42,712 nucleotides of DNA, taken from the sequence record PQ850615.1; one strand, written 5' to 3'. This document shows, in pieces, positions 4,882-40,833 of this stretch. The notes below the pieces were generated by a model. That model was given only the letters and a program-made list of their open reading frames with translations, had not been told where the DNA came from and did no database searches. The position numbers and the translations under genes were made by a program. This DNA comes from Escherichia phage LotteLoewe_Bas71. Position 1 is the first letter of the stretch, and the number at the start of each line of letters is the position of its first letter.

Positions 4882-4909
4882 AAGGCCCCATTATGGGGCC
4901 TTAGTTTTC
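4882..4909. terminator. bidirectional intrinsic terminator
   Basis: AAGGCCCC-ATTAT-GGGGCCTT hairpin flanked by A-run upstream and T-run downstream; between convergent genes. Confidence 0.6.
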
Positions 4910-5111
4910 AACGGAATCTTGTGTTTAAATCCTGCTCATGGACAACCCTCAGAACAGTGTCATAATCCCCGTATCTTCCAGGTTCAAATATATCTAATGC
5001 CTTGTAAGCAGACATTGCGTCAGGGAAAACCTGCAGAACCTTTTTAACCCGGCACAAGTCACCGTCGAACTCTTCATCGAACTCTTGAACTACTTCGCAA
5101 ATTGCATACAT
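4908..5111 (-). CDS. hypothetical acidic 67-aa protein (opposite-strand accessory gene)
   Basis: Strong SD (AGGAGGTGA), own promoter at 5139..5167 and terminator at 4882..4909; antiparallel to flanking head genes. Confidence 0.55.
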   Translation of the reverse strand: MYAICEVVQEFDEEFDGDLCRVKKVLQVFPDAMSAYKALDIFEPGRYGDYDTVLRVVHEQDLNTRFR

Positions 5112-5138
5112 TTTTCACCTCCTGTTTAAGTTAACTGA

Positions 5139-5167
5139 ATAGTACCCTATTATATTGGGGTGTGCAA
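5139..5167 (-). promoter_or_regulatory. leftward class A promoter for accessory gene 4908..5111
   Basis: On the minus strand TTGCAC (5162..5167) - N17 - TACTAT (5139..5144); same palindromic core. Confidence 0.55.
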
Positions 5168-5221: not shown

Positions 5222-5233
5222 CTATTCGAATAG
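5222..5233. repeat. perfect 12-bp palindrome CTATTCGAATAG
   Basis: Everted arrangement of the GAATAG/CTATTC half-sites found in the early promoter cores; adjacent to TTGACT (5234..5239). Confidence 0.5.
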
Positions 5234-5442
5234 TTGACTTTTCACTAAAAATATGATAAGCTCCACCTGAGCTTGTGAAGTATGAACAAGCGACCGCGGC
5301 GCGGGCAGGTAACGGAGCGGGACGTAAGTCCTGAGTGTAGTTACGCTGACGCGTTCGGAAGGGCCATACTCTATTGCTTGTGTAAAAAGTAACAGGTTTA
5401 CTGAGATTACGCCGTTTCTATGTTTAAATGATAAGGACTAGC

Positions 5443-5469
5443 GCCCTGCTTTAAGGCAGGGCTTTACTT
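5443..5469 (+). terminator. terminator/attenuator-like hairpin just upstream of the spanin RBS
   Basis: GCCCTGC-TTTAAG-GCAGGGC followed by TTTACTT; 17 nt before spanin ATG. Confidence 0.4.
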
Positions 5470-5486
5470 ATCGAGAAAGGAGAAAC

Positions 5487-9875: not shown

Positions 9876-10372
9876 GTTTCGCGCTTGATGTCTCTAAGTT
9901 CGTGGAAAAGGCGAAGAAGAACCCTGAGAAGGTGATGCGTCAGGTGTCTATCAAGCTGTTTTCCGCTATTATAAAGGCGAGTCCGGTGGATACTGGCCGC
10001 TTTCGTATGAACTGGATGGCCTCTGGCGGTACTCCTGCTTCCGGTACGAGTCGCGGTACCGACCCTAGCGGGGCGAACGCGATAAGCGCTATGGTTTCTA
10101 CGGTGTCAGGTTTACCCGACTGGAGCGAGTTTACCCTGACAAATAACCTGCCGTATGCGGAAGTTATAGAGTTCGGGGGTTACGCTACCGGCTTCCATGG
10201 CCCTAAGCGTCCTTCTAACTTAGGCTCTAAATTTGTTGGCCCATTGAGGCCGAAAGCGCCCAGCAGAACAACCACAGACGGATATTCCCTTCAGGCTCCG
10301 CAAGGTGTTGTCCGGGTTAACGTTCAGCGATTCAATAAACTGCTCGAAGAAGAAGCGAGGAAGTATAAATAA
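9872..10372 (+). CDS. HK97 gp10-like neck / tail-completion protein
   Basis: N-terminal region (KLFSAIIKASPVDTGRFRMNW) resembles the HK97 gp10 family; position. Confidence 0.45.
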   Translation: MSFALDVSKFVEKAKKNPEKVMRQVSIKLFSAIIKASPVDTGRFRMNWMASGGTPASGTSRGTDPSGANAISAMVSTVSGLPDWSEFTLTNNLPYAEVIEFGGYATGFHGPKRPSNLGSKFVGPLRPKAPSRTTTDGYSLQAPQGVVRVNVQRFNKLLEEEARKYK

Positions 10373-11958: not shown

Positions 11959-11984
11959 AAGGCCCCTTTCGGGGCCTTTTTCTC
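11959..11984. terminator. bidirectional intrinsic terminator
   Basis: AAGGCCCC-TTTC-GGGGCCTT hairpin followed by TTTTCT; between major tail gene and leftward cassette. Confidence 0.6.
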
Positions 11985-13405: not shown

Positions 13406-13732
13406 CTATTTACTTTCTGCGCCTATCGCCCACCCTGTCATTACCATTTGCAGACGGGTGGCTGTCAGTAGGCTATAGAAAGCATCTCCGTTTTTCTCTA
13501 CCGAACGTATCACTGTGTAGGTTACGGCCTGCGGGGGTAGGCCCGATTTACCAACCTCCACGGCGGCCTCACACTCGCGAACTGTAGAGTCCTTGAACGC
13601 CTTTACAATAGTAGGGTCGGCTTTATCAAGCACACCAGAAGTCATAAGAACAGATTCACTAAATACCTGTTCGCACGGGGCTCCAAAAGTAGCAAAAGAC
13701 ATAAAACCCAGAGCTAGTACTAATTTACGCAT
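13406..13732 (-). CDS. secreted (periplasmic) 108-aa protein
   Basis: N-terminal signal peptide (MRKLVLALGFMSFATFGA), two cysteines; first gene after promoter 13761..13789. Confidence 0.5.
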   Translation of the reverse strand: MRKLVLALGFMSFATFGAPCEQVFSESVLMTSGVLDKADPTIVKAFKDSTVRECEAAVEVGKSGLPPQAVTYTVIRSVEKNGDAFYSLLTATRLQMVMTGWAIGAESK

Positions 13733-13749: not shown

Positions 13750-13778
13750 GTTACATGTGAATAGTACCCTATTATATT
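13750..13778 (+). promoter_or_regulatory. candidate rightward promoter overlapping the leftward one (divergent pair)
   Basis: GTTACA (13750..13755) - N17 - TATATT (13773..13778) on the plus strand within the same palindromic element; upstream of tail chaperone operon. Confidence 0.35.
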
Positions 13779-13789
13779 GGGGTGTGCAA
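13761..13789 (-). promoter_or_regulatory. leftward class A promoter for cassette 13732..11983
   Basis: Minus strand TTGCAC (13784..13789) - N17 - TACTAT (13761..13766). Confidence 0.55.
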
Positions 13790-23767: not shown

Positions 23768-23792
23768 AAGGCCCCGTTTGGGGCCTTTTCTC
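23768..23792. terminator. bidirectional intrinsic terminator between tail and replication arms
   Basis: AAGGCCCC-GTTT-GGGGCCTT hairpin followed by TTCTC; flanked by convergent operons. Confidence 0.6.
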
Positions 23793-25532: not shown

Positions 25533-26322
25533 TTACTGCCCCCATGAACGCCTTTATAAATTCAGCGGCTACTTGCGGGACGATGGCATTGCCATAACCG
25601 CGCAATCGTCCCACTCTTGCGGATACCCCATGAGTTGCCTCGCAAAATCCGCCTGGTATGACTCTAGTTTCCTTATCTGCTCCATGGTTGGGTTTCCATG
25701 AATCCCATAAACATGAAGCCACATCTGGCGATAAAGAGTATCGTTCCTGAATTTTCCGTCCTTTCTGTAAAATGTCTTGCTGAGATCCCCGTAATCCTTC
25801 CATCCTCGCGCCGTTGGTGTCGCCCATCCTCGCGCCAAAGATGATTCTTTTCCTTTCCTGTGGAGAGCCGACGCTGCAAGCTGGCAATACTGACGCCCCG
25901 CAGGCGTAGCCTTTGTCTTCCAGGTTAAGGAATACAAAATCGAGCCAGTGCTTCCCAATTGCTGCTGCAACCTGCTCTCCAAACAGCAATTCAGGCTTGC
26001 ACTCTCTGATGAGCCTGAGAAATGCTGGGGCAAGGTGTCGATCGTCGTCAAATCCGAGAGACTTACCGGCAACGCTAAACGGCTGGCAAGGTGGTGATCC
26101 TGTCCAGAGTCGAGTGCTTTCTGGTATTCCTGCCAGCTGGAGTGCAAGGGGCCACCCTCCGATTCCGGCAAAGAAGTGACACTGTGTAAATCCTTCCAGG
26201 TCTGAAGGGGTGACTTCGGTGATTGATCGTTCATCGACATATCCGTAAGGAATTAGTTTATTGTTAATTAATTCACGCAGCCACGCGGCTGCGCCTTTAT
26301 CCCATTCGTTGTAATAGTTCAT
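25525..26322 (-). CDS. DNA (cytosine-5) methyltransferase
   Basis: C5-MTase motifs I (FFAGIGGW), IV (SPPCQPFS), VI-like (LFGEQV), VIII (QERKRIIFGAR). Confidence 0.6.
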   Translation of the reverse strand: MNYYNEWDKGAAAWLRELINNKLIPYGYVDERSITEVTPSDLEGFTQCHFFAGIGGWPLALQLAGIPESTRLWTGSPPCQPFSVAGKSLGFDDDRHLAPAFLRLIRECKPELLFGEQVAAAIGKHWLDFVFLNLEDKGYACGASVLPACSVGSPQERKRIIFGARMGDTNGARMEGLRGSQQDILQKGRKIQERYSLSPDVASCLWDSWKPNHGADKETRVIPGGFCEATHGVSARVGRLRGYGNAIVPQVAAEFIKAFMGAVNE

Positions 26323-26510
26323 TTCGCCACCAGAACTAACTCTTTACGCCCGAACGCCGTAACGTTACCGGTTACGTCTTCAATAACCAGTTTACCGTTC
26401 GACTCGACGAACACCGTATCAACGGCAACAGGACGACGGGTCTTAACGTTGAAAATCATGTCGCCGGGTACGATGTCACGTGCTGGTTTGCGGTCATATT
26501 CGTGTTTCAT
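26319..26510 (-). CDS. hypothetical 63-aa protein
   Basis: ORF with AAGGAA SD, immediately downstream of promoter 26545..26573. Confidence 0.4.
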   Translation of the reverse strand: MKHEYDRKPARDIVPGDMIFNVKTRRPVAVDTVFVESNGKLVIEDVTGNVTAFGRKELVLVAK

Positions 26511-26826
26511 TTCTAAATTCCTTATATTGTTGGGGTATGTGCTTACTATAATAGTCTGCTATTAGGGTGTCAATCTGTTTTATCGAACCAACGACAAAAA
26601 CATTTGCGCCACGTTTACGTATACGCTCGTGTTCCCGTAGCTGGTGCGGGTCTGGCTTAGTGTTTTCGTCTTTCTTCACCTCGACGAACCAGACGATGCC
26701 GCCGGGTAGAATTGCCAGCAGGTCAGGAGCGCCTGAACGTCCTTCGTAGGAAAGTTTACGAACGAGGCCACCAATGGCCTCGAATCGCTCTTTTGCGTAT
26801 TTCTGGATGCGGCCCTCTTTAGTCAT
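26494..26826 (-). CDS. VRR-NUC domain nuclease
   Basis: PD-(D/E)XK-like core (GAPDLLAIL ... VWFVEVKKDEN) typical of VRR-NUC. Confidence 0.55.
   Translation of the reverse strand: MTKEGRIQKYAKERFEAIGGLVRKLSYEGRSGAPDLLAILPGGIVWFVEVKKDENTKPDPHQLREHERIRKRGANVFVVGSIKQIDTLIADYYSKHIPQQYKEFRNETRI
26545..26573 (-). promoter_or_regulatory. leftward class B promoter (TTGACA-N17-TATAGT)
   Basis: Minus strand TTGACA (26568..26573) - N17 - TATAGT (26545..26550); lies inside the 3' end of the VRR-NUC ORF. Confidence 0.5.
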
Positions 26827-29570: not shown

Positions 29571-30197
29571 TTAACGGCGGCGACGTTCGCGGCGCGGTGC
29601 TTCATCTTCTTCGTCGTCTTCCAGGTCATTGACGCTCGCAGCGACTTTAGAACCGCCGAACGCTTTGCCTTCGCCAACGTATTTAATCGCCAGCAGGTTA
29701 ACGCCGAGGACTTTGTATTTCTGGCTGAACCAGATTTCAACGCTTACGTTAGCTAAGCATCCGCTGTAAACCTGTTCACCTTCAATCTGTTCACCGTCTA
29801 CATTGAAGTCCTGTTCTACCTGAGTCTCACCTTTTTTAGAGGTTACAATCAGCGGCTGCTTCTGTGCCTTCGCTTTGAAGTAGAAGCCTTCCGGGAAGTC
29901 TTCAAACGGATTGTCGCGCTCGGCGATGTCCTTAATCGCGCATTTATCCATGTGCTTGCCTTCGCCGTAGTTTGACTTCATCCATTTCTCTGCGGCGGCT
30001 GCACCCAACGCTTCTTCAACCACAGCGTAAACGGTGTCGTAGAGCGCGTCGATTTGCGCGTGGTCGGACGGCAGGATAATAGTCGCGCTGTACTGACCTT
30101 TAGTGATTGAACCATCATCATTTTCACGGTCTTTTTCGCGTTCGAATACGTTAACCCAGGCAGTGTTTACTTTACGCAGATTTAATTTCAGTCCCAT
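29571..30197 (-). CDS. ssDNA-binding protein (T7 gp2.5-like)
   Basis: Acidic C-terminal tail (DLEDDEEDE), AFGGSK motif and overall pattern reminiscent of gp2.5-type SSB; own promoter and terminator. Confidence 0.45.
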   Translation of the reverse strand: MGLKLNLRKVNTAWVNVFEREKDRENDDGSITKGQYSATIILPSDHAQIDALYDTVYAVVEEALGAAAAEKWMKSNYGEGKHMDKCAIKDIAERDNPFEDFPEGFYFKAKAQKQPLIVTSKKGETQVEQDFNVDGEQIEGEQVYSGCLANVSVEIWFSQKYKVLGVNLLAIKYVGEGKAFGGSKVAASVNDLEDDEEDEAPRRERRRR

Positions 30198-30255
30198 TTG
30201 ATTTCTCGCTTTTCAGTTTCAGTTTACTCCGGGATCTGCCCGGCCAGTGATTAGA

Positions 30256-30284
30256 ACTATAATAGCTAACTATTCATGTGTCAA
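30256..30284 (-). promoter_or_regulatory. leftward class B promoter (TTGACA-N17-TATAGT) for SSB-like gene
   Basis: Minus strand TTGACA (30279..30284) - N17 - TATAGT (30256..30261); core AATAGCTAACTATTCA. Confidence 0.55.
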
Positions 30285-30503
30285 ATAAAATTTTGCAATA
30301 GGGATTATGTTCTCGAAATTAAGCATATTGGCCGGTTCGAACTCATCCTCTACAGGGTCGTATCGCATCATGGTACCGTTCAAGAACGTGAACGATTCCG
30401 AGTGTAGATACCCATCCCAGCGCCATACCATCAAAAAATCTTTATCAGTCGGCATTTCATTTACTTGAATCATTCTAAATCCTCCTCTGTAACTTGATTC
30501 CAC
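30270..30503 (-). CDS. hypothetical 77-aa protein
   Basis: ORF in the replication arm; 3' end overlaps promoter 30256..30284. Confidence 0.4.
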   Translation of the reverse strand: MESSYRGGFRMIQVNEMPTDKDFLMVWRWDGYLHSESFTFLNGTMMRYDPVEDEFEPANMLNFENIIPIAKFYLTHE

Positions 30504-31711
30504 TCAGGACGTTTGTCATCCGCCGTTGCGACGCATGGCGCACCGGGCTTACGGGTAATGAAGTCTTTCAGTTCTTCTTCCGGTACAATTTTAACCGCTT
30601 CGGTCGGTGTCATAAGAACTACCTTTTGCAGCATAGTACCGTACTTCTCGAATACTGCGTCGGTATCTTTCCACGCACGATTACCGGGGCGACCTTCAAC
30701 CAGTTTGTATCCTGGCACTTTCTTACCTGAATGCAAAGCAGCAGCCATCGCTTTCTCAACCTTGTCAATGTGCTGGCGCAACAAAGGCAACTTCTCATAT
30801 TCAGCTACGAGTTGCTCCGGCGTAAGTTCCAGCGCAAAGTCGTCCTCCAGTTCTTCGGCAAGTACAGAATTAACAGTCTTTGTACGCGCTGCGCACTGTT
30901 CAGAGAACCGACACCACTGACAACCGTCGACAGACGGCTTAAAGTCCGACGCTTTCAGGTTCTTCTTGCCTCGGAAATACGCATCAAGGGCTAACAGTGC
31001 GCGTTTCTGTGCGAACTTAGCGAACAGTTCCAGACCTTCAACCGAGATGTCCCACTCCGACGCGCCCCCGGCGTACGGCTGGAAGATTACCAGGCGCACT
31101 ACTGAGATGTTATAACGTCTCTTGAGTCGGCGGTAAACACCGAGAGCGTAGAGCATAAGCTGCTTGTTTTCTTTCGCTTCGACATGATGCCGTCCTGTTT
31201 TCAGGTCGCCGATAATGAGCATATGCTCGTCAGTGTTCGCCAGTTCCTGAACGGCAACGAGGTCGGCGGTTCCGAATGTCTCTACGCCTTCATATCCCGG
31301 ATGCAGAACCTCAGTAAGATTTACGCGCATCTCCAGCTTCGCGTAAGTCGCCACGTCGATAATCGCTTTGCAGTAATCGGTGTACTTTGTACACTGGTCA
31401 ATCATGTCCGCCGTAATCAGTACCGCGCCTTTCATCGGACTGATTAGCGCCTTAATCGGGCCTTTACCTTCGTCCAGTACGTACGCGCCTACTTCACGTG
31501 CTAGCGGCAACGCAGTGCCTTTGATGTACTGATTCAGGTGAATCTCAGATATCGTGTGCATAGCCGTGCCTAATACAGCGGCTTTGCCTGACGTGTTCGG
31601 GATGTCTTTTTCACATGCCAGCGACGCACTGCACGCCAACCATTTCTTAGCACCTGACGGTGACAGTAAGGCGTGTACATCGTTATTGCCCCCGCGTTCT
31701 TTCAAAATCAT
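30470..31711 (-). CDS. PD-(D/E)XK nuclease, Cas4/RecB-like exonuclease
   Basis: RecB nuclease motifs (GTADLVAV, IGDLKTG, EAKENKQLMLYA) and C-terminal Cys cluster (CQWCRFSEQC); start refined to ATG 31711 with GGGAGG SD. Confidence 0.6.
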   Translation of the reverse strand: MILKERGGNNDVHALLSPSGAKKWLACSASLACEKDIPNTSGKAAVLGTAMHTISEIHLNQYIKGTALPLAREVGAYVLDEGKGPIKALISPMKGAVLITADMIDQCTKYTDYCKAIIDVATYAKLEMRVNLTEVLHPGYEGVETFGTADLVAVQELANTDEHMLIIGDLKTGRHHVEAKENKQLMLYALGVYRRLKRRYNISVVRLVIFQPYAGGASEWDISVEGLELFAKFAQKRALLALDAYFRGKKNLKASDFKPSVDGCQWCRFSEQCAARTKTVNSVLAEELEDDFALELTPEQLVAEYEKLPLLRQHIDKVEKAMAAALHSGKKVPGYKLVEGRPGNRAWKDTDAVFEKYGTMLQKVVLMTPTEAVKIVPEEELKDFITRKPGAPCVATADDKRPEWNQVTEEDLE

Positions 31712-31980
31712 ACCCTGACCTCCCACTGGTCAATTAAATGCCGAGTTTTGTGCTGGCAATGCATCGCCCAGCTATACATAGACTCGAAGACATAAAAGTC
31801 ACTTTTAACGAAAGTCGTACGCTTAATCTGCGACAGGTGACGGCCTATATCTTTAGGCCGTGGTACTTTTCCTAAGTACGCCATCTCTTCCATCTGGTGC
31901 GCGCCGGACGGCGCACGCAACAGCCACAACGCCTCTGTGTTATCCCGTCGGTCAATACCTCGGTAGAGTTGGTAAATCAT
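31708..31980 (-). CDS. hypothetical 90-aa protein
   Basis: ORF ATGA-coupled to the nuclease gene. Confidence 0.4.
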   Translation of the reverse strand: MIYQLYRGIDRRDNTEALWLLRAPSGAHQMEEMAYLGKVPRPKDIGRHLSQIKRTTFVKSDFYVFESMYSWAMHCQHKTRHLIDQWEVRV

Positions 31981-32023
31981 ATTACGACCCTCTGTTAAAG
32001 CGGCCCGGAGGCCGCCAGATAAA

Positions 32024-32524
32024 TTATTCTTCTTCGAAATACTTGTTCTTAATCGCCGTCAGGCGTTTCAGGTATTCAGCTAGGTCTTCGTCTTTAATCG
32101 CGGCAATCTTCATTTTCTTACCGGTGAACTCCTCCAGCAGTTCATCGGAATCGTCGCACGCAGCATCGCTAGGACCTTCGTTAATTGCATCGTCGATAGC
32201 CTGAATCTGGTCACGAAGAGACTGGTAATCGACCTCTTCTTTCTCTTCTTCTGGTTCTGGAGTCGGCTCCTCTACTTTAGCTTTACGCGGCTTGCGTTTC
32301 GGCTTCTCTTCTTCTGCTGGTTTAGCGTCAACGATGTCTTCACCTTCAACAGGGATTTCTTTTGTTGCTTCTTTTTCGCACTCAGCTACCGCTTCTTTGG
32401 TATACACTACCGTCTCTACTTCTAACGGCGCTGCAACTTGTGCTGACTGCTTCGCACTGTTCGCAGCAATCAGTTCATGTGCAACTACGAAACGTTCCAG
32501 TAATTTTAAGAATTGTTCTAACAT
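32024..32524 (-). CDS. highly acidic early protein (candidate DNA mimic / anti-restriction)
   Basis: 166 aa, very D/E-rich with one basic patch (KPKRKPRKAK); first gene after tandem leftward promoters; conserved leader CGAGAGGAGAGA. Confidence 0.5.
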   Translation of the reverse strand: MLEQFLKLLERFVVAHELIAANSAKQSAQVAAPLEVETVVYTKEAVAECEKEATKEIPVEGEDIVDAKPAEEEKPKRKPRKAKVEEPTPEPEEEKEEVDYQSLRDQIQAIDDAINEGPSDAACDDSDELLEEFTGKKMKIAAIKDEDLAEYLKRLTAIKNKYFEEE

Positions 32525-32555
32525 TTGTTTCTCTCCTCTCGTTTGGTATGGGCTA

Positions 32556-32584
32556 ACTATAATAGCGAACTATTCACATGTCAA
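32556..32584 (-). promoter_or_regulatory. leftward class B promoter (TTGACA-N17-TATAGT) for acidic early gene
   Basis: Minus strand TTGACA (32579..32584) - N17 - TATAGT (32556..32561); core AATAGCGAACTATTCA. Confidence 0.6.
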
Positions 32585-32599
32585 TGGGCTTTTCTAAAA

Positions 32600-32628
32600 T
32601 AATTAATATGGTACTATTCACATATCAA
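32600..32628 (-). promoter_or_regulatory. second, weaker tandem leftward promoter / operator half-site
   Basis: Minus strand TTGATA (32623..32628) - N17 - TAATTA; contains half-site GTACTATTCACAT. Confidence 0.35.
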
Positions 32629-32648
32629 CTGACTAAGGAGTAATTGAC

Positions 32649-32864
32649 ATGCAACCATCTGAACTAGGCATCCGTGTAGAACAACGCCGCAAAGAACTCG
32701 GCATCTCCCAGCGCCGTTTGGCGGCCCTGACCGGCGTTTCCCAGGGCGCGATTAACCAACTGGCACTTGGAGTAACTCAGGACGTCCGCCCGGCAACGCT
32801 GTTCAAACTGGCGGAAGTTCTGGAAGTAGACGCCAAGTGGCTGGCGTTAGGTGAAGGGGCTTAA
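32649..32864 (+). CDS. XRE-family helix-turn-helix transcriptional regulator (Cro/CI-like)
   Basis: HTH signature (ISQRRLAALTGVSQGAINQLALG); AAGGAG SD; own terminator; oriented against the surrounding leftward genes. Confidence 0.7.
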   Translation: MQPSELGIRVEQRRKELGISQRRLAALTGVSQGAINQLALGVTQDVRPATLFKLAEVLEVDAKWLALGEGA

Positions 32865-32879
32865 AGCCCCTTTCTTTTT
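32856..32879 (+). terminator. intrinsic terminator after XRE HTH gene
   Basis: GGGGC-TTAAA-GCCCC hairpin followed by TTTCTTTTT; stop codon lies within the hairpin. Confidence 0.6.
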
Positions 32880-32881
32880 AC

Positions 32882-35104
32882 CTATTCCAAATCCTCCTCT
32901 GTCACCACCAGCATCTCATTTGGTTCGTATAGTGTCTTCGGCCTTAATCTATCCCCTATTCTTTCGGGTATACGATATGTTCTCGGTACTACTTCGCCGT
33001 TAGCATCGCAACCAAGCATTAGTTCTCCATCTTTCAACATTTTATCAAGATGGGTGTTAGTCACAGAGAAGTCACCGGAACGAGCCACTATCTGCTGCTG
33101 AGTAAAACCGCGACCTGTGTCATCTGACTGTTGCAGGTCTTCCAGTGCCGAAAGTATTGACTCCTTCCTTACTTCATCCCTGCCGCGTTTAACTTCTTCC
33201 TTTACTTTTTGCTTACCTTCTTTCGTCAACCCTTCTTCCCGCTCTTTCTCCTCGTCAGTTTTGAACGGCTCGAAACCCCACGGCATCAACACAAGCGCCT
33301 TGTGTGGTTCAGGAAGGTCCAGGTTTACGATTGTGCCGTATTCTTCTGTGCCCCCCAGGAACTCAACCGCACGGTACTCTTTCGGCGGAGGAGCTTCGCG
33401 GAACTGCACAGACTCCAGCACCATGCCAACCGTTTTCTGTTGAGGACCGTGCTTAAATTTCGAGTGGTATACGTTTATTTGACGGTCGGTTGCACGTTCG
33501 ATTGTCAGTTCCACGTCAACACCCGCATACAGCGCCCCACTGCCGCGTGCTTTCTTTCCACCCTTCGGCGTATGGTGGACAACGCCTACTGCGGCTTTAG
33601 TTGCATCGCGTACTTCTTTCAGAATGGCGATAACTTTACCCATGCCGATTGCTGTTGATGAACTGTTCTCGTCGAACTTATCAATCGTCAGTGCCAGGGT
33701 CTGGTTAAGGGTGTCGAACGCAACCATGCCAATTGGCTCGTCGCCAGCAGTTTCGCGCATTAACTTAATCAGGCTTTTAAGTTTGCCGACTTCGCCCATA
33801 TCGATGACGTGTACATAATCTTTACCTTCCCCGCCATATTTAGCCGCTAGTGCATCAATACGGGTGCGTGTAGCTGCGCCACCCTCACCATCAATATAGA
33901 AATGGTGGCAACGCTGGGTATCCGCCCCCGCAAACCTGTACCCGGCGGCGCTGAGGTACATCATCCCCAGCGTATAGAACGATTTGTACGTGCCAGATTC
34001 CCCGACGATATCCCAGATACAATCCGACGGCATGTACCCCTCAACGACGAAATCAGCCTTTACCGGCTCCGGTAACTCGTCCTCCTCTGAGTCCTCGTCG
34101 TCTTCCAGGTCGTCGAGGCTGCAAGTTACTGGGTCCTCGTTCTCTGTGCGGTGTAGTTCTTCAATCTCTTCTTCCGGTAAATCAGGCAGAGCCGCACGAA
34201 TGCTGTTAATGCTGATAGGTTGCTTATCTATGTTAAGCTCGTCGGGTAGGCCACACATACGCAGGGCCAAATGCTGCCTACGGTTAAGCTCGGTGCAAGC
34301 GCCGTTGTTTGTATGCTGGCAGACAAAGCGCACTTCTTTACCGTCGAGCATTATGCTGGTGGAGCCCTTGCCTGTATGCAGATGTTCGTTAGGGCATGGC
34401 ACTTCGTACCCGCGCCCGGAAGATAAAGCGTCAAGGCCAAGCTCGGCTTCGCAGAAGTGTGCTATATCCGCGTTAAGCCCATGCTCATCAGCGGCAAGTG
34501 TTTTAGCCTCACGCTTACGCAACCCCATCTCTTCGGCTTTCTTGATGTACCGCTCAGCACGGATAACACGCCCTTCTGTAACCGTTATCTTCGACTCTTT
34601 ATGCGGCAGGTAGATAAGGCGGTTGCCGTCTTCTGTGCAGTGGTCGCGCAACGCTTCGTCTATTTCTAACTCTGCACAAATAGCACGTTGCACCATCCAC
34701 GCGTCGTTAGAGTTAAACGGCGTGCGAGCTGGAACCAGAACGCGGAAAGCGTAATCTCCGTTTTTACACACATGCTGATGCGATGCCGTTGTATGCAGAA
34801 TATTGAAGAACGGTGCGTTCTTGAATTTGCGGGTAAGGTCGCGGTACTGAGTACGGTTGAGATGGTCGAAATCGAACTTAACCACACTGTCTTCCAGGAT
34901 AGCGTTTTTACGGCGACCACCAACAGGCGCAATAGCTTTCTGTTTAATCTTGGCAGCGTCGTACTCTTCCTTAGTCCATGACGGGTCCACGGATAAACGC
35001 TTCGATGTATCGCAGACATACTCCACAAACTGCTCGAGCGGCATCTCACGCGCTACAGGGTTTTTATCGAATGTGTTACGCAGCGTTGCAAAAACAATAT
35101 TCAT
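32882..35104 (-). CDS. DNA primase-helicase (primase N-terminal region + RecA/DnaB-like ATPase)
   Basis: 740 aa; Walker A-like GESGTYKS; C-terminal helicase motifs (VVHHTPKGG ... GSGALYAGVD); N-terminal Cys/His cluster (CPNEHLHTG ... FVCQH). Confidence 0.65.
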   Translation of the reverse strand: MNIVFATLRNTFDKNPVAREMPLEQFVEYVCDTSKRLSVDPSWTKEEYDAAKIKQKAIAPVGGRRKNAILEDSVVKFDFDHLNRTQYRDLTRKFKNAPFFNILHTTASHQHVCKNGDYAFRVLVPARTPFNSNDAWMVQRAICAELEIDEALRDHCTEDGNRLIYLPHKESKITVTEGRVIRAERYIKKAEEMGLRKREAKTLAADEHGLNADIAHFCEAELGLDALSSGRGYEVPCPNEHLHTGKGSTSIMLDGKEVRFVCQHTNNGACTELNRRQHLALRMCGLPDELNIDKQPISINSIRAALPDLPEEEIEELHRTENEDPVTCSLDDLEDDEDSEEDELPEPVKADFVVEGYMPSDCIWDIVGESGTYKSFYTLGMMYLSAAGYRFAGADTQRCHHFYIDGEGGAATRTRIDALAAKYGGEGKDYVHVIDMGEVGKLKSLIKLMRETAGDEPIGMVAFDTLNQTLALTIDKFDENSSSTAIGMGKVIAILKEVRDATKAAVGVVHHTPKGGKKARGSGALYAGVDVELTIERATDRQINVYHSKFKHGPQQKTVGMVLESVQFREAPPPKEYRAVEFLGGTEEYGTIVNLDLPEPHKALVLMPWGFEPFKTDEEKEREEGLTKEGKQKVKEEVKRGRDEVRKESILSALEDLQQSDDTGRGFTQQQIVARSGDFSVTNTHLDKMLKDGELMLGCDANGEVVPRTYRIPERIGDRLRPKTLYEPNEMLVVTEEDLE

Positions 35105-35229
35105 TTCTTTTTCTCCGCACGTTCTAAGGCTTCCTGCATACGGCGCATTGCGCGGTTCATCTTTACCGGTGCGAAGAAGTCAGCGCCGTGTTTCTGGCGG
35201 CGTAGCTGTGGAACTATTAACTTTGTCAT
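35101..35229 (-). CDS. hypothetical 42-aa basic protein
   Basis: Small ORF whose stop overlaps the primase-helicase ATG (ATGA). Confidence 0.3.
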   Translation of the reverse strand: MTKLIVPQLRRQKHGADFFAPVKMNRAMRRMQEALERAEKKK

Positions 35230-35269
35230 TGTATAATCCTTATGCTTACTTTGATGATTTGTACTTTAG

Positions 35270-35300
35270 CCCCGACGTTCTGGCGTTGGGGTTTCTTTTT
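35270..35300 (+). terminator. plus-strand intrinsic terminator inside the leftward arm (orphan)
   Basis: CCCCGACG-TTCTGG-CGTTGGGG stem followed by TTTCTTTTT; no plus-strand gene upstream. Confidence 0.4.
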
Positions 35301-35589
35301 ACCGTTTAGCCAACCCTTCCAGCAAATTTTTATACTCTTCAAAATATTCCTCGACCAAATCATCGCCGAAATAGAAGTCGATATACTCGAGATTATCTCT
35401 TACGTTAAGCGATGCCGACATGGTGCTTAGTTGGCGTAAGCTAATTAGCTTCATTTCTGTTTCTACGCAGAAAGGCCGGTAGGTATCAAGATGGCAAGAG
35501 ATATTGAAGCATAAAGCGAACTCTCCGGCCACGGAGTGAACCATATACACTTCGTTTTCTGCTTTATTGTGGAAAATTACGCCTTTCAT
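35299..35589 (-). CDS. hypothetical 96-aa protein
   Basis: ORF ATGA-coupled to the upstream AlpA-like gene. Confidence 0.4.
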   Translation of the reverse strand: MKGVIFHNKAENEVYMVHSVAGEFALCFNISCHLDTYRPFCVETEMKLISLRQLSTMSASLNVRDNLEYIDFYFGDDLVEEYFEEYKNLLEGLAKR

Positions 35590-35768
35590 TTCACGTTCTC
35601 CTTAATCCATGCTTCGACTTTATTACGGTCAAATGTTCCCGGTAAACGGCGGCCCATAACCTTAATACAGCAGTCAGGGAATTTGCCGCTGCGCAACCAG
35701 TTATTAATGGTCTGACGTGTCACCCCGATACGCTCGGCTACCTCATTCTGTGTCATGTAATGTTGCAT
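35586..35768 (-). CDS. AlpA/Xis-like HTH DNA-binding protein
   Basis: Start refined to ATG 35768 (AGGGGA SD); HTH region MTQNEVAERIGVTRQTINNWLRSGKFP typical of the AlpA family; first gene of the leftward arm. Confidence 0.6.
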   Translation of the reverse strand: MQHYMTQNEVAERIGVTRQTINNWLRSGKFPDCCIKVMGRRLPGTFDRNKVEAWIKENVK

Positions 35769-35799
35769 TTTTATATCCCCTGTTTGTTTAGTGAAACCG

Positions 35800-35828
35800 A
35801 GTATAGGATAGCGGGAATGTAAAAGCAA
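35800..35828 (-). promoter_or_regulatory. leftward promoter of replication arm (TTGCTT-N17-TATACT)
   Basis: Minus strand -35 TTGCTT (35823..35828), 17-nt spacer, -10 TATACT (35800..35805); about 30 nt upstream of AlpA-like ATG. Confidence 0.5.
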
Positions 35829-35865
35829 CCAATCCCTGCAATATTTAATCTTTACAAAAAAGTTA

Positions 35866-35895
35866 TTGAAAGTTCTTGACACATGTTTGTATAAT
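35866..35895 (+). promoter_or_regulatory. rightward promoter in central control region (TTGAAA-N18-TATAAT)
   Basis: -35 TTGAAA 35866..35871, 18-nt spacer, consensus -10 TATAAT 35890..35895; divergent from promoter 35800..35828. Confidence 0.5.
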
Positions 35896-36094
35896 GGTTT
35901 TGGGACTTGTATATATTACGGAGTTGACGAACCCTCCCCGAGGGATTCGTCAACCCCTCCCAGACAGCTGAGATGCTTGCCTTGTGGTTTAAGGATAAGT
36001 GTATCTAAATCTCATTTAAAGAAGTAACCCGCTGAAATATCTACTGTTTCTTAATGTGCCGTAGATTCGCAACCGTAAAAATGTAACGATTATT

Positions 36095-36122
36095 GGGCAG
36101 GCTTAGGGCCTGCCCTTTAGTT
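36095..36122 (+). terminator. terminator-like hairpin ending the control-region transcript
   Basis: GGGCAGGC-TTAGG-GCCTGCCC followed by TTTAGTT. Confidence 0.4.
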
Positions 36123-36187
36123 ACCAAGTAATAAGAATAAAGGCACAACAGTTTCGAAAGAATCACAACGGCAACGTAACTATTCTC

Positions 36188-36216
36188 TTGCACACCCCAA
36201 CATAATAGGATACTAT
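36188..36216 (+). promoter_or_regulatory. early promoter, class A (TTGCAC-N17-TACTAT) with palindromic core
   Basis: -35 TTGCAC 36188..36193, 17-nt spacer, -10 TACTAT 36211..36216; core CATAATAGGATACTATTCA. Confidence 0.55.
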
Positions 36217-36241
36217 TCACTTATCGAAACGAGACAGAGGA

Positions 36242-36442
36242 GTGAGGGTTATGTTTAAGAAGGGTCAGTTGGTTAAAACTAAACGCGGAGGGCAATATGT
36301 ATTAGTGTTGCAGGACGAGAGCGAGTATGACGAGGATAATCTGGTTGACGTATGGGGTCTGGTAAGAAAGAAAACTGGGTTCGCCTCCCGCGATAATTTA
36401 GAACTCATCGGCAACAATTTTAAATTCAAAGGGGCGAAGTGA
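36242..36442 (+). CDS. hypothetical early protein (66 aa)
   Basis: First ORF after promoter 36188..36216 with conserved AACGAGA...GGAG leader. Confidence 0.45.
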   Translation: MRVMFKKGQLVKTKRGGQYVLVLQDESEYDEDNLVDVWGLVRKKTGFASRDNLELIGNNFKFKGAK

Positions 36443-36657
36443 TGGAAGAATTAATTTGTATTGAATCCCGCCAGGATGTGCAGGATTGGTTTGTGAAAGG
36501 TAACAAATATTCGTCAGGAGTATATTACAACGGCCGTCGATACGTTTTAGATGAAGACGGTGATGAATGGGATTTAGAGGACACTGTGGGCGAGACTTTA
36601 ACCGTTAGTTTTCTTCAATGTTGTTTCCGCATCATTCACAACGGCATCGAATCATGA
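36439..36657 (+). CDS. hypothetical early protein (72 aa)
   Basis: ATGA-coupled ORF. Confidence 0.4.
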   Translation: MMEELICIESRQDVQDWFVKGNKYSSGVYYNGRRYVLDEDGDEWDLEDTVGETLTVSFLQCCFRIIHNGIES

Positions 36658-36684
36658 GGCTCGTGCCGACGACTCTGAGGGAGG

Positions 36685-36885
36685 TTGCCGTTAATGAGAA
36701 TTCGTATAACTGATGTTGATTATGTGGACCCGCGCGATGGTGACGATTTGTCGCTTAGTTACTGGGGAGTTTCGGTAGGTGATGAGTTTGAGGTTTCCCT
36801 TGCTGGTTCCGATATGTTCATTATCGAATGTGACGCCGGATATGTGGTTGTGCACTCCTGTGAGTGTGAGGTTCTGGAGGACTAA
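36685..36885 (+). CDS. hypothetical early protein (66 aa)
   Basis: ORF with GAGGGAGG SD. Confidence 0.4.
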   Translation: MPLMRIRITDVDYVDPRDGDDLSLSYWGVSVGDEFEVSLAGSDMFIIECDAGYVVVHSCECEVLED

Positions 36886-36888
36886 GTT

Positions 36889-37032
36889 ATGAGAGAAGCA
36901 TTCGAACGGTGGGCCGTCGTCGAGGGTCTGCCGGTTAACAAGGGTTCAAAGAAAGAGTACCTGAACGTTAAGACGCGTCTTGCGTGGCGGGCGTGGAAAG
37001 CTGGTGCGCAAGCTGTGATGAATAAGGGGTGA
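36889..37032 (+). CDS. hypothetical early protein (47 aa)
   Basis: Short ORF tightly packed between neighbours; below ORF-track cutoff. Confidence 0.3.
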   Translation: MREAFERWAVVEGLPVNKGSKKEYLNVKTRLAWRAWKAGAQAVMNKG

Positions 37033-37035
37033 TTT

Positions 37036-37224
37036 ATGGGTAAGTGGATTAAGTGTAGTGAGCGGATGCCGGGTGACTTTGAAGATGTCCTGGTTTCGGA
37101 TGGTAGGTCTGTAGAAGTTATGTACCTCAGATTCGGCCTCTGGTACGTAACATCCCCGGATTCTGCTATTTGTGGGGATGAGGTTACACACTGGATGCCG
37201 CTACCAGAGCCGCCGGAAGTGTGA
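37036..37224 (+). CDS. hypothetical early protein (62 aa)
   Basis: ORF with AAGGGG SD; followed by terminator 37266..37296. Confidence 0.4.
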   Translation: MGKWIKCSERMPGDFEDVLVSDGRSVEVMYLRFGLWYVTSPDSAICGDEVTHWMPLPEPPEV

Positions 37225-37265
37225 TGTTATATTGTAACAATAGTTTGGGATTTTACTGAGTGACT

Positions 37266-37296
37266 TACGCTGCTACACAGCAGCGTATCATTTTTC
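37266..37296 (+). terminator. intrinsic terminator after first early operon
   Basis: TACGCTGCT-ACAC-AGCAGCGTA followed by TCATTTTTCTC. Confidence 0.55.
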
Positions 37297-37380
37297 TCAT
37301 TTTTGTTCTATTTCACCAAACGCAACAATCGAAGCGGCTATTGCAGGAGATGCAACAATACAAACACCAATAAAATTTAC

Positions 37381-37409
37381 TTGCACACTAATATAGAATA
37401 GGCTACTAT
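37381..37409 (+). promoter_or_regulatory. early promoter, class A (TTGCAC-N17-TACTAT)
   Basis: Same architecture and core (TAGAATAGGCTACTATTCA) as 36188; follows terminator 37266..37296. Confidence 0.55.
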
Positions 37410-37440
37410 TCATTTACACAAACGAGAGGAGAGACGGAAG

Positions 37441-37590
37441 ATGGTTACTTTGATGATTATGGAATTCGAAAACAGCGCCGCAACTTATCGCGAGATGACT
37501 ATGGCGCAGGCGTACCGCCTGGCCTCGAACGGCAACTTCTACAAGGCGCAAATCATCAATGAGTTCGGGGTAATTGACTATGAATTTTAG
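37441..37590 (+). CDS. hypothetical early protein (49 aa)
   Basis: First ORF after promoter 37381..37409; 22-bp leader CGAGAGGAGAGACGGAAGATGG. Confidence 0.4.
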   Translation: MVTLMIMEFENSAATYREMTMAQAYRLASNGNFYKAQIINEFGVIDYEF

Positions 37591-37852
37591 CAGCTACACC
37601 GTGACCGTTGATTTTGAGGGGCTGGAGTTGCCCCTCCCAAACAACTATCGGTATATAACTCGCGATAGTAATGGGTTTATTCAGGGGTGGCGGAACAAAC
37701 CGACAGACACTGAGTTCGGGATGTCGGGTGGGGAAGAGTTGCCAATCACGTTCGGACATCAGAGCAGCAATGAAGAGCTTAAAACGGTGATTCGTAAGTA
37801 TCGCCGACGCGGCAACACGGGGCTTATCGCAATAACAGGCGCTGTTGAATAG
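37580..37852 (+). CDS. hypothetical early protein (90 aa)
   Basis: ORF overlapping the upstream gene; ATG 37580 (alternative TTG 37574). Confidence 0.4.
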   Translation: MNFSSYTVTVDFEGLELPLPNNYRYITRDSNGFIQGWRNKPTDTEFGMSGGEELPITFGHQSSNEELKTVIRKYRRRGNTGLIAITGAVE

Positions 37853-37871
37853 GCGAGAGGAGAGACGGAAG

Positions 37872-38009
37872 ATGGGCGGGTACGGTAGCTGGACTTTAGG
37901 CGAACTGGTAGATGCTTACGAAATAATGGGCAGCACTTCGGTGTGCAACGGAGACACTAAATCGCTTCTAGTCGGGGCGGATGAGAAAAGGGGTGAAGCT
38001 GATGAGTAG
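37872..38009 (+). CDS. hypothetical early protein (45 aa)
   Basis: Preceded by an exact second copy of the 22-bp leader/start element (37854..37875). Confidence 0.35.
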   Translation: MGGYGSWTLGELVDAYEIMGSTSVCNGDTKSLLVGADEKRGEADE

Positions 38010-39646: not shown

Positions 39647-39955
39647 TTGGATAAATTTACTGAAACAGTGACAGGCTGGCTTCTCGCTGCCGCACTAGCC
39701 GGAGGGGTAATCGGACTAAGGCAACATAAGTCCGCTATTTCCGGCCCTATCGACGGCTTCTGCTTTATTGCAACTGGCTTCACTTGCGCCGTATTTGGCG
39801 CACCTCTCGCAGCTCAATGGTTTGGAATCACGGGCGACCGTGAAATCGCAGGCCTGGGCTTCATTATCGCTATTCTCTGGATGCCTATCTATTCCCGTCT
39901 GTCCGGTATCGTCGCCGGAGAATACATCGCACGTCGAGGAGGCCCGGATGAATGA
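39647..39955 (+). CDS. holin
   Basis: 102 aa with predicted TM helices and charged C-terminus; TTG start with GGAGGA SD; adjacent to the endolysin. Confidence 0.55.
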   Translation: MDKFTETVTGWLLAAALAGGVIGLRQHKSAISGPIDGFCFIATGFTCAVFGAPLAAQWFGITGDREIAGLGFIIAILWMPIYSRLSGIVAGEYIARRGGPDE

Positions 39956-40782: not shown

Positions 40783-40804
40783 ATCTATTTTCTGCAATGA
40801 CTAG

Positions 40805-40833
40805 TTGACTATTACCTACGACCCTATTATATT
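40805..40833 (+). promoter_or_regulatory. rightward promoter (TTGACT-N17-TATATT)
   Basis: Canonical sigma70 spacing; sits right after terminator 40754..40782; spacer carries CCCTATTATAT, related to the shared core. Confidence 0.55.

Follow-up and report, generated by a model that had tools for sequence, protein, structure and literature searches.

What does one short palindrome do in promoters scattered along the genome of a strictly lytic phage, and which protein reads it? The question is raised by Escherichia phage LotteLoewe_Bas71 (sequence record PQ850615.1), whose 42,712 nucleotides were analysed as a whole (the window). Its promoter at 36188..36216, like several others, contains AATAG-N4-CTATT, a 14-bp palindrome of two five-base arms around four central bases. 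The original prediction, made from the sequence alone, regarded this core as the operator of a dimeric regulator embedded in every early promoter. The best explanation that we can offer, with about an even chance of being right, is that these units are host sigma-70 promoters with a built-in 14-bp dyad operator, for which a dimeric phage protein, most likely the XRE-family product of a small gene, is the predicted binder.

We take the 42.7-kb window (51% G+C) as the near-complete genome of a Kagunavirus (Guernseyvirinae), because its open reading frames (ORFs) follow the annotated order of phage Bas76 from the terminase onward and the K1-specific phage G has the identical XRE protein. Bas76 and the window are 96.5% identical across the 8-kb stretch compared (30000-38000). 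The Guernseyvirinae considered here are lytic siphoviruses.

The palindrome is far commoner than chance would allow. Exact copies occur at seven sites of the window where about 0.03 are expected (14 against 0.06 when both strands are counted), and three conserved variants carry a single mismatch. With up to one mismatch allowed, the 16-mer AATAGNNNNCTATTCA gave 10 matches, whereas dinucleotide shuffles predict 0.12 and never yielded more than 2, so the proposed excess over a shuffled background was borne out. The same arms around three or five central bases gave no match in the window. In a count of every inverted repeat with 5-bp arms and a gap of 0-10 bp, AATAG-N4-CTATT ranks first by far, and the runners-up are terminator stems. 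The sequences quoted in the original prediction were found at all ten of its coordinate ranges, and the palindrome that it placed at 5222..5233, CTATTCGAATAG, is real and is kept in two other Kagunavirus genomes. The sites had also been called intergenic, but the one at 26550 falls within the resolvase ORF (26494..26826), at its 3' end.

Every palindrome site overlaps a sigma-70-like promoter aimed at the neighbouring gene. The two promoter classes described earlier, class A (TTGCAC-N17-TACTAT) and class B (TTGACA-N17-TATAGT), were verified at four and three positions, respectively (Table 1), all of class B on the minus strand, and the notion of one palindromic core from which promoters fire either way holds. 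The predicted directions fit the genes: a start codon with a Shine-Dalgarno sequence lies 21-52 nt downstream, as judged from the ORFs and the Bas76 annotation, and the leader measures 112-218 nt for two structural-operon promoters. Class B scores 11/12 as a sigma-70 promoter and provides the three best matches within the scanned half of the genome. Class A scores 7/12 and retains the key TTG, A2 and T6; generic sigma-70 scoring mis-scored this class, and the site classes were set by explicit pattern and gene direction. A third arrangement, class C, scores 10/12 at 40805, its other member in the window being TTGACT/TAAGCT at 5234. The spacer is 17 bp at the window sites and 18 bp at position 39910 of phage Jersey. 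Independently, sigma-70 promoters have been annotated in the GenBank record of Jersey at a number of orthologous positions, among them those that correspond to sites 26550 and 30261.

It is credible that the units are sigma-70 promoters. The earlier picture of two registers was too narrow, as at least four were found. The -10 hexamer starts at palindrome position +7 in class A (TACTAT), at +10 in the promoter upstream of Jersey gp25 (TATTAT), at +13 in class B (TATAGT or TATATT) and at +28 in class C, in which the dyad centre supplies the -35 hexamer TTGACT (5229 and 40800 in the window, 42338 in Jersey). The promoter classes have only the arms in common. The idea that every early promoter contains the core did not survive, since neither the promoter at 35866 (+) nor the one proposed for the AlpA-like/primase operon has it. 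The early timing of the family is itself an assumption; palindrome-bearing promoters also head the tail operon (13750 onward) and the operon that appears to lead into the packaging and head genes (40805 onward).

At 13760, one dyad appears to be common to two overlapping divergent promoters. Their opposite-strand -10 hexamers (13761..13766 and 13773..13778) lie 6 bp apart and the predicted start sites about 31 bp apart. Symmetric bidirectional promoters have overlapping -10 elements and start sites about 18 bp apart, so that this label was rejected for 13760. Also rejected was an alternative -10 for class A (TATAAT/CATAAT to the left of the palindrome), for which there is no -35 at a usable distance.

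Conservation was followed in 64 viral contigs anchored on the XRE gene, with 10-kb flanks, and in five complete genomes. All Kagunavirus-type and Jerseyvirus-type loci of this set contain the exact dyad, two to seven times per locus; every Cornellvirus-type locus and all unrelated loci contain none. Orthologue alignments of seven window sites, with 19-31 distinct sequences per site, show at most two minority sequences in each arm column, as in the -35 and -10 hexamers, while most alignment columns of the central N4 and of the 4-nt linker that joins the -35 to the dyad are variable. In class B, the left arm AATAG occupies -25..-21, within the spacer, and is as invariant as the hexamers although the adjacent spacer bases vary. 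The sigma-70 holoenzyme makes no base-specific contacts at -25..-21.

The imperfect sites appear to be conserved as such. The one upstream of the XRE gene reads AATAT-GGTA-CTATT in 20 of 21 distinct orthologues, and the site at 40800 always has one mismatch, which lies in the left arm in Kagunavirus (ACTAG-TTGA-CTATT) and in the right arm in Jerseyvirus (AATAG-TTGA-CTAGT). The 5229 site, AATAG-TTGA-CTtTT, is identical among three Kagunavirus genomes, and Bas76 and Schulenburg have the whole 5222..5262 element without any change. In Jerseyvirus, 40/40 half-sites have a T directly outside the arm, as compared with T in 52% and G in 38% of those from Kagunavirus. Cornellviruses show a looser dyad, A[AT]TA-N6-TA[AT]T, a pattern defined post hoc from the same data, at 10 sites in SE1 (L003) and 9 in VSiP (L005) against about 2 expected. 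These are mostly orthologous promoters, for example those at 31230, 34369, 38063 and 40952 of VSiP. As the Cornellviruses are highly diverged (the primase is only about 30% identical in this comparison), the residual dyad argues that the binder is still present in them.

Taken together, the strict spacing, the selected arms, the free centre and the shifting register point to the operator of a dimeric protein. The dyad behaves as an independently selected element, in keeping with the dimeric-regulator operator that the original prediction proposed, albeit one that is not found in every promoter. In the scheme that we favour, a dimeric phage-encoded protein would recognise the two 5-bp arms. In class A, the operator would cover about -19..-6, in class B -25..-12, and in class C it would be centred on the -35. 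Because it always lies between the -35 and +1, the bound protein would block RNA polymerase. The variable register fits such steric repression rather than a stereospecific activator or a polymerase-recognition element, and we infer that repression by occlusion is the most economical mechanism. The promoters would be turned down with the build-up of the regulator, which would amount to genome-wide negative feedback of the Cro type in a strictly lytic phage. Repression might further be graded, with perfect sites at the operons for DNA metabolism (replication and recombination) and at those of small genes, and conserved one-mismatch sites at the promoter that serves the XRE gene itself and at two others in front of structural operons.

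Activation of the MerR type was considered and rejected on account of the 17-bp spacer and of register shifts by 3, 6 and 21 bp. Class B does resemble MerR-type promoters in that the dyad lies between -35 and -10, and the HTH_17 family, to which a protein discussed below belongs, is distantly MerR-like. However, MerR-type promoters have over-long spacers of 19-20 bp, with the dyad at a fixed register in their middle, that are untwisted by the regulator, in contrast to the optimal 17 bp and the variable register seen here.

Only two recognisable DNA-binding proteins are encoded nearby, a helix-turn-helix protein of the HTH_3/XRE family and an AlpA/excisionase-like protein of the HTH_17 family. 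As putative binders, we rank the XRE protein first, the AlpA-like protein second and a host factor third. The best candidate is the XRE protein, which is predicted to bind the palindrome on the strength of its similarity to 434 Cro: its best sequence matches among solved structures are 434 Cro and the 434 repressor (E about 1e-5). The operators of these two proteins are dyads, also 14 bp long, in which the outer bases are conserved and the centre is free to vary. The XRE gene is monocistronic with a terminator of its own, and two palindrome copies, 44 bp apart, lie upstream of it (32561 and 32605). The copy at 32605 either overlaps a class A-like TACTAT -10 or falls just past the start of an alternative promoter, TTCACA-N16-TAAAAT (32573..32600). 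Further, the XRE protein is the sole recognised DNA-binding protein common to all three genera compared, and the genus-specific base flanking the arms (T in one, T or G in the other) fits a binder that is a diverged phage protein.

The likeness to the OR and OL regions of phage 434, which are bound by Cro and CI, extends beyond the protein. It includes a dyad of 14 bp that is conserved at its outer bases and variable in the middle, the overlap with sigma-70 -35 and -10 elements, two sites in a divergent region beside the regulator gene and, here, a putative binder of 71 amino acids that matches 434 Cro. There are differences, too. The present phage is strictly lytic, and neither a CI partner nor an integrase is annotated in it; its sites, at which binding is predicted, are single ones at about ten scattered promoters instead of tripartite OR/OL clusters; and the half-site is AATAG rather than ACAA. 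The immI region of P22 offers a second parallel, since the dyad operators of Arc and Mnt lie inside overlapping divergent promoters (Pant/Pmnt), where a single bound protein can govern both directions, as is apparently the case at 13760. Arc and Mnt are, however, ribbon-helix-helix proteins, none of which was detected here, and P22 has one such locus as opposed to a genome-wide family. The stoperators of mycobacteriophage L5, bound by gp71, likewise comprise many copies of one short repressor site across a genome. They are asymmetric 13-bp sites that act in an orientation-dependent manner in the transcribed regions of a temperate phage, whereas the present sites are symmetric and located in promoter cores.

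Other XRE proteins were examined for guidance on the operator. Distant homologues in unrelated viral contigs were set aside, as none of them shares the recognition helix and hence no operator can be transferred. Those that are 34-37% identical (L054, L055, L063, L064) have palindromes of the type GTAG-N4-CTAC upstream, usually paired; the geometry xTAG-N4-CTAx is common to these and to AATAG-N4-CTATT. An apparent third XRE type, in L052, is actually a frameshifted Jersey-type gene. In this Jerseyvirus-like IMG/VR contig, the gene is split by a frameshift at about 9950..10210, which could be a sequencing error or mark a pseudogene.

Several observations weigh against an XRE-bound repressor site. 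The recognition helices of the Kagunavirus (SQGAINQ) and Jerseyvirus (SQSLITH) proteins differ, yet the five-base arms are identical, and the Cornellvirus helix (TQSAISH) is near that of Jersey, but the Cornellvirus sites are looser. The post hoc definition of the looser pattern must be counted here as well. The class A copies at 5138, 13760 and 36204 are near-identical over about 30 bp, those at 5138 and 13760 exactly so, which means that part of their likeness reflects recent duplication or gene conversion and not independent selection. The tail-operon promoter at 13750 has a perfect site, which weakens the pattern of graded sites, and the palindrome promoters span several gene classes, so that a simple account of early shut-off is incomplete. 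Finally, literature searches on the Guernseyvirinae, including Kagunavirus and Jerseyvirus, found no transcript mapping, 5'-end, binding or regulator study. The only Kagunavirus transcriptome study found, that of phage K1B4, reports coarse time classes without 5' ends.

An unlikely variant retains the operator-in-promoter scheme and assigns the site to the AlpA-like HTH_17 protein of 60 amino acids. All palindrome loci whose fetched stretch reaches the expected position contain its gene, at 70-100% identity (three truncated loci have no match); the gene is absent from all Cornellvirus loci, which themselves have no strict palindrome, and is limited to the same approximately 440 phage records as the clade. 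The helix-turn-helix motif is also well conserved (TRQTINN in Kagunavirus, TRRTLNN in Jerseyvirus). However, this co-occurrence represents one clade and one evolutionary event. Two loci (L008 and L023) encode a 70%-identical variant with a different helix, STMTLNR, and still have five exact palindromes each. The AlpA-like protein is the weaker candidate chiefly because the Cornellviruses lack its gene yet retain the looser dyad at the same promoters. A search of solved structures gave no significant match for this protein. Small excisionase-type HTH_17 proteins are, moreover, usually monomers or binders of direct repeats, which counts against the variant.

The phyletic profile of a further gene, g26319 (26319..26510, minus strand; PHROG 4879), follows the strict palindrome in the same way as that of the AlpA-like gene; both are confined to one clade of about 445 records, so profiling cannot separate them. 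The product of g26319 (63 amino acids) was rejected as a binder, since its AlphaFold model (predicted local distance difference test score 76) shows a small beta-barrel, SH3/Tudor-like, and gives no hint of sequence-specific DNA binding. The model had no significant structural match. The protein is 94-100% identical across Kagunavirus and Jerseyvirus, far above the neighbouring genes, and is absent from Cornellviruses. Its gene has a palindrome-bearing promoter of its own, located within the resolvase gene.

Still less likely is an explanation that does without a dedicated binder, in which the palindrome is a by-product of two quasi-symmetric, T/A-type -10-like elements that stand back to back and permit firing either way, in a cassette spread by duplication and gene conversion. 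It draws on the fact that the arms hold or adjoin -10-like hexamers on both strands (TACTAT, TATTAT, TATAGT/TATATT, with a perfect TATAAT at several sites), on the seeming use of 13760 in both directions and on the near-identity of the class A copies over about 30 bp. Nevertheless, the class B left arm is invariant although it lies outside the sigma-70 contacts, the arms are strictly 4 bp apart, and they alone are shared by the promoter classes. In addition, some Cornellvirus promoters (for example SE1 6426 and 39630) work on paper with dyad-free spacers.

We see only a slim chance that the palindrome is bound by a host protein conserved in E. coli and Salmonella and exploited by the phage promoters. 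Such a protein would account for arms that are identical in E. coli and Salmonella phages despite the divergence of nearly all phage proteins. The most tolerated variant, ACTAG, and centres such as TTAA further resemble the core of the trp operator, ACTAG-TTAA-CTAGT. However, TrpR binding should be lost on a C-to-A change in the CTAG core, and we know of no E. coli regulator with an AATAG-N4-CTATT consensus. The extended half-site also varies by phage genus, and Cornellviruses use the looser site although they, too, infect Salmonella. That the sites are promoters of a phage-encoded RNA polymerase, as the authors of the fBC-Eco01 paper (PMC9825357) label their seven PHIRE sites, can practically be dismissed and the published labelling corrected, because the gene content contradicts it (the annotations of Bas76, Jersey, Schulenburg and VSiP contain no such gene, and the large ORFs of the window are all otherwise assigned) and because the motif is palindromic, is used in both orientations and comes with good -35 and -10 hexamers at 17-bp spacing.

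The repeat has already been reported in close relatives and is not a new sighting. For fBC-Eco01 (PMC9825357), the seven PHIRE "phage promoters" have the consensus tgAATAGTa-ccTATTat-T and are ascribed to the phage-encoded polymerase, and for SGP-C, TAATAGTACCCTATTATGTT is given as a conserved regulatory element. Seven PHIRE promoters are also listed for Golestan, which is compared here by their count. The passages of these three reports that concern the repeat contain nothing on dyad symmetry, fusion to sigma-70 promoters, dual orientation, registers, conservation or a binder.

Table 1. Palindrome sites, associated promoters and candidate regulator genes of the window (positions in the window, strand in brackets)
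Feature	Coordinates	Palindrome	Target or remark
Exact AATAG-N4-CTATT sites (first base)		5138, 13760, 26550, 30261, 32561, 36204, 37397	
Class A promoter	5167..5139 (-)	5138..5151, exact, AATAG-TACC-CTATT	drives 67-aa gene 4908..5111
Element with everted half-sites CTATT-CG-AATAG (5222..5233)	5222..5262 (+)	continuing into AATAG-TTGA-CTtTT (5229..5242)	
Class C promoter, TTGACT-N17-TAAGCT	5234..5262 (+)	-35 is the centre of 5229..5242	218-nt leader; spanin/capsid/tail-tube operon
Class A promoter, TTGCAC-N17-TACTAT	13789..13761 (-)	13760..13773, exact	toward gene 13406..13732
Promoter GTTACA-N17-TATATT	13750..13778 (+)	13760..13773, common with the class A unit	toward tail operon from 13897
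Class B promoter	26545..26573 (-)	26550..26563, exact, fills the spacer	within 3' end of resolvase ORF; gene 26319..26510, then methylase and helicase genes
Class B promoter	30256..30284 (-)	30261..30274, exact	single-stranded DNA-binding protein gene 29571..30197 and DNA polymerase gene
Class B promoter	32556..32584 (-)	32561..32574, exact	gene 32024..32524 and exonuclease operon; divergent from XRE gene
One-mismatch palindrome		32605..32618, AATAT-GGTA-CTATT	immediately upstream of XRE gene
XRE-family HTH_3 protein, 71 aa, 434 Cro/repressor-like	32649..32864 (+)		own terminator 32853..32873
AlpA-like/excisionase-type HTH_17 protein, 60 aa	35586..35768 (-)		
Class A promoter	36188..36216 (+)	36204..36217, exact	small genes from about 36251
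Class A promoter	37381..37409 (+)	37397..37410, exact	small gene at about 37441 and following genes
Class C promoter, TTGACT-N17-TATATT	40805..40833 (+)	-35 in the centre of ACTAG-TTGA-CTATT (40800..40813)	

At the 40805 promoter, a lone CTATT half-site abuts the -10. This promoter drives small genes from 40867 onward, and the circular record of Bas76 suggests that the operon runs on into the terminase and head genes.

Two elements beside the palindrome promoters also deserve description. The strong class C promoter TTGACT-N17-TAAGCT opens the stretch 5234..5470 (+), in which a G+C-rich segment of about 200 nt runs to a terminator (5443..5462) just before the spanin gene. No Rfam family matches this leader, within which Bas76 has an annotated ORF of 36 aa. 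Schulenburg has a second copy in its early region (L004 37878..38021), 79% identical over 150 bp (E = 3e-28). Possible identities of this segment are a small RNA, a regulatory leader and a mobile cassette of promoter and leader. The other element, 35866..36120 (+), is flanked by the AlpA-like gene and by the class A promoter of 36188; in Schulenburg, the paralogue of the 5234 leader takes this place. The element in the window comprises a near-consensus promoter (TTGAAA-N18-TATAAT, 11/12), a long hairpin at about 35923..35955 and a terminator at 36095..36115, with no Rfam match and a doubtful 53-aa ORF with a TTG start. An Rfam scan of the whole window returned no family match.

Further repeats accompany the promoters. 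A conserved motif of the leader and ribosome-binding site, AACGAGAGGAG, lies downstream of many promoters of all classes, for example at 32525..32545, 36226..36241 and 37418..37435, and is also present in Jersey and SE1. The leader of the class B promoter at 26550, GCACATACCCCAAC, resembles the -35-plus-spacer segment of class A, TTGCACACCCCAAC, a likeness which hints that the promoter classes may have arisen from one another by rearrangement. A second family of repeated regulatory elements consists of near-identical terminator stems, AAGGCCCC-N-GGGGCCTT, at 4882..4902, 11959..11978 and 23768..23787, which sit at the boundaries of convergent operons.

A bolder extension of the XRE-operator explanation can be advanced only tentatively, and we regard it as doubtful. 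One operator, placed in both orientations and in four registers within about ten promoters of the host type, would run nearly the whole transcription programme with a single 434-Cro-like protein as its reader, and one copy or more would act on two overlapping divergent promoters simultaneously. The apparently conserved quality of the sites would impose temporal order, for which no sigma factor, RNA polymerase or antiterminator of the phage would be needed. This arrangement would be ancestral to the Guernseyvirinae, the Cornellviruses having a relaxed half-site.

The concept of an operator within a promoter is textbook knowledge, and the value of the finding is therefore specific to the phage group and not conceptual. 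The feature is a genome-wide instance of this textbook arrangement that is new for a phage group of practical interest. Guernseyvirinae such as Kagunavirus and Jerseyvirus belong to the siphoviruses most often isolated for therapy and biocontrol of E. coli and Salmonella. If true, the proposed scheme would account for the retention of Cro-like and excisionase-like genes by strictly lytic phages. Moreover, one operator and one small repressor would offer a simple handle for the engineering of these phages, for example for timing the expression of a payload.

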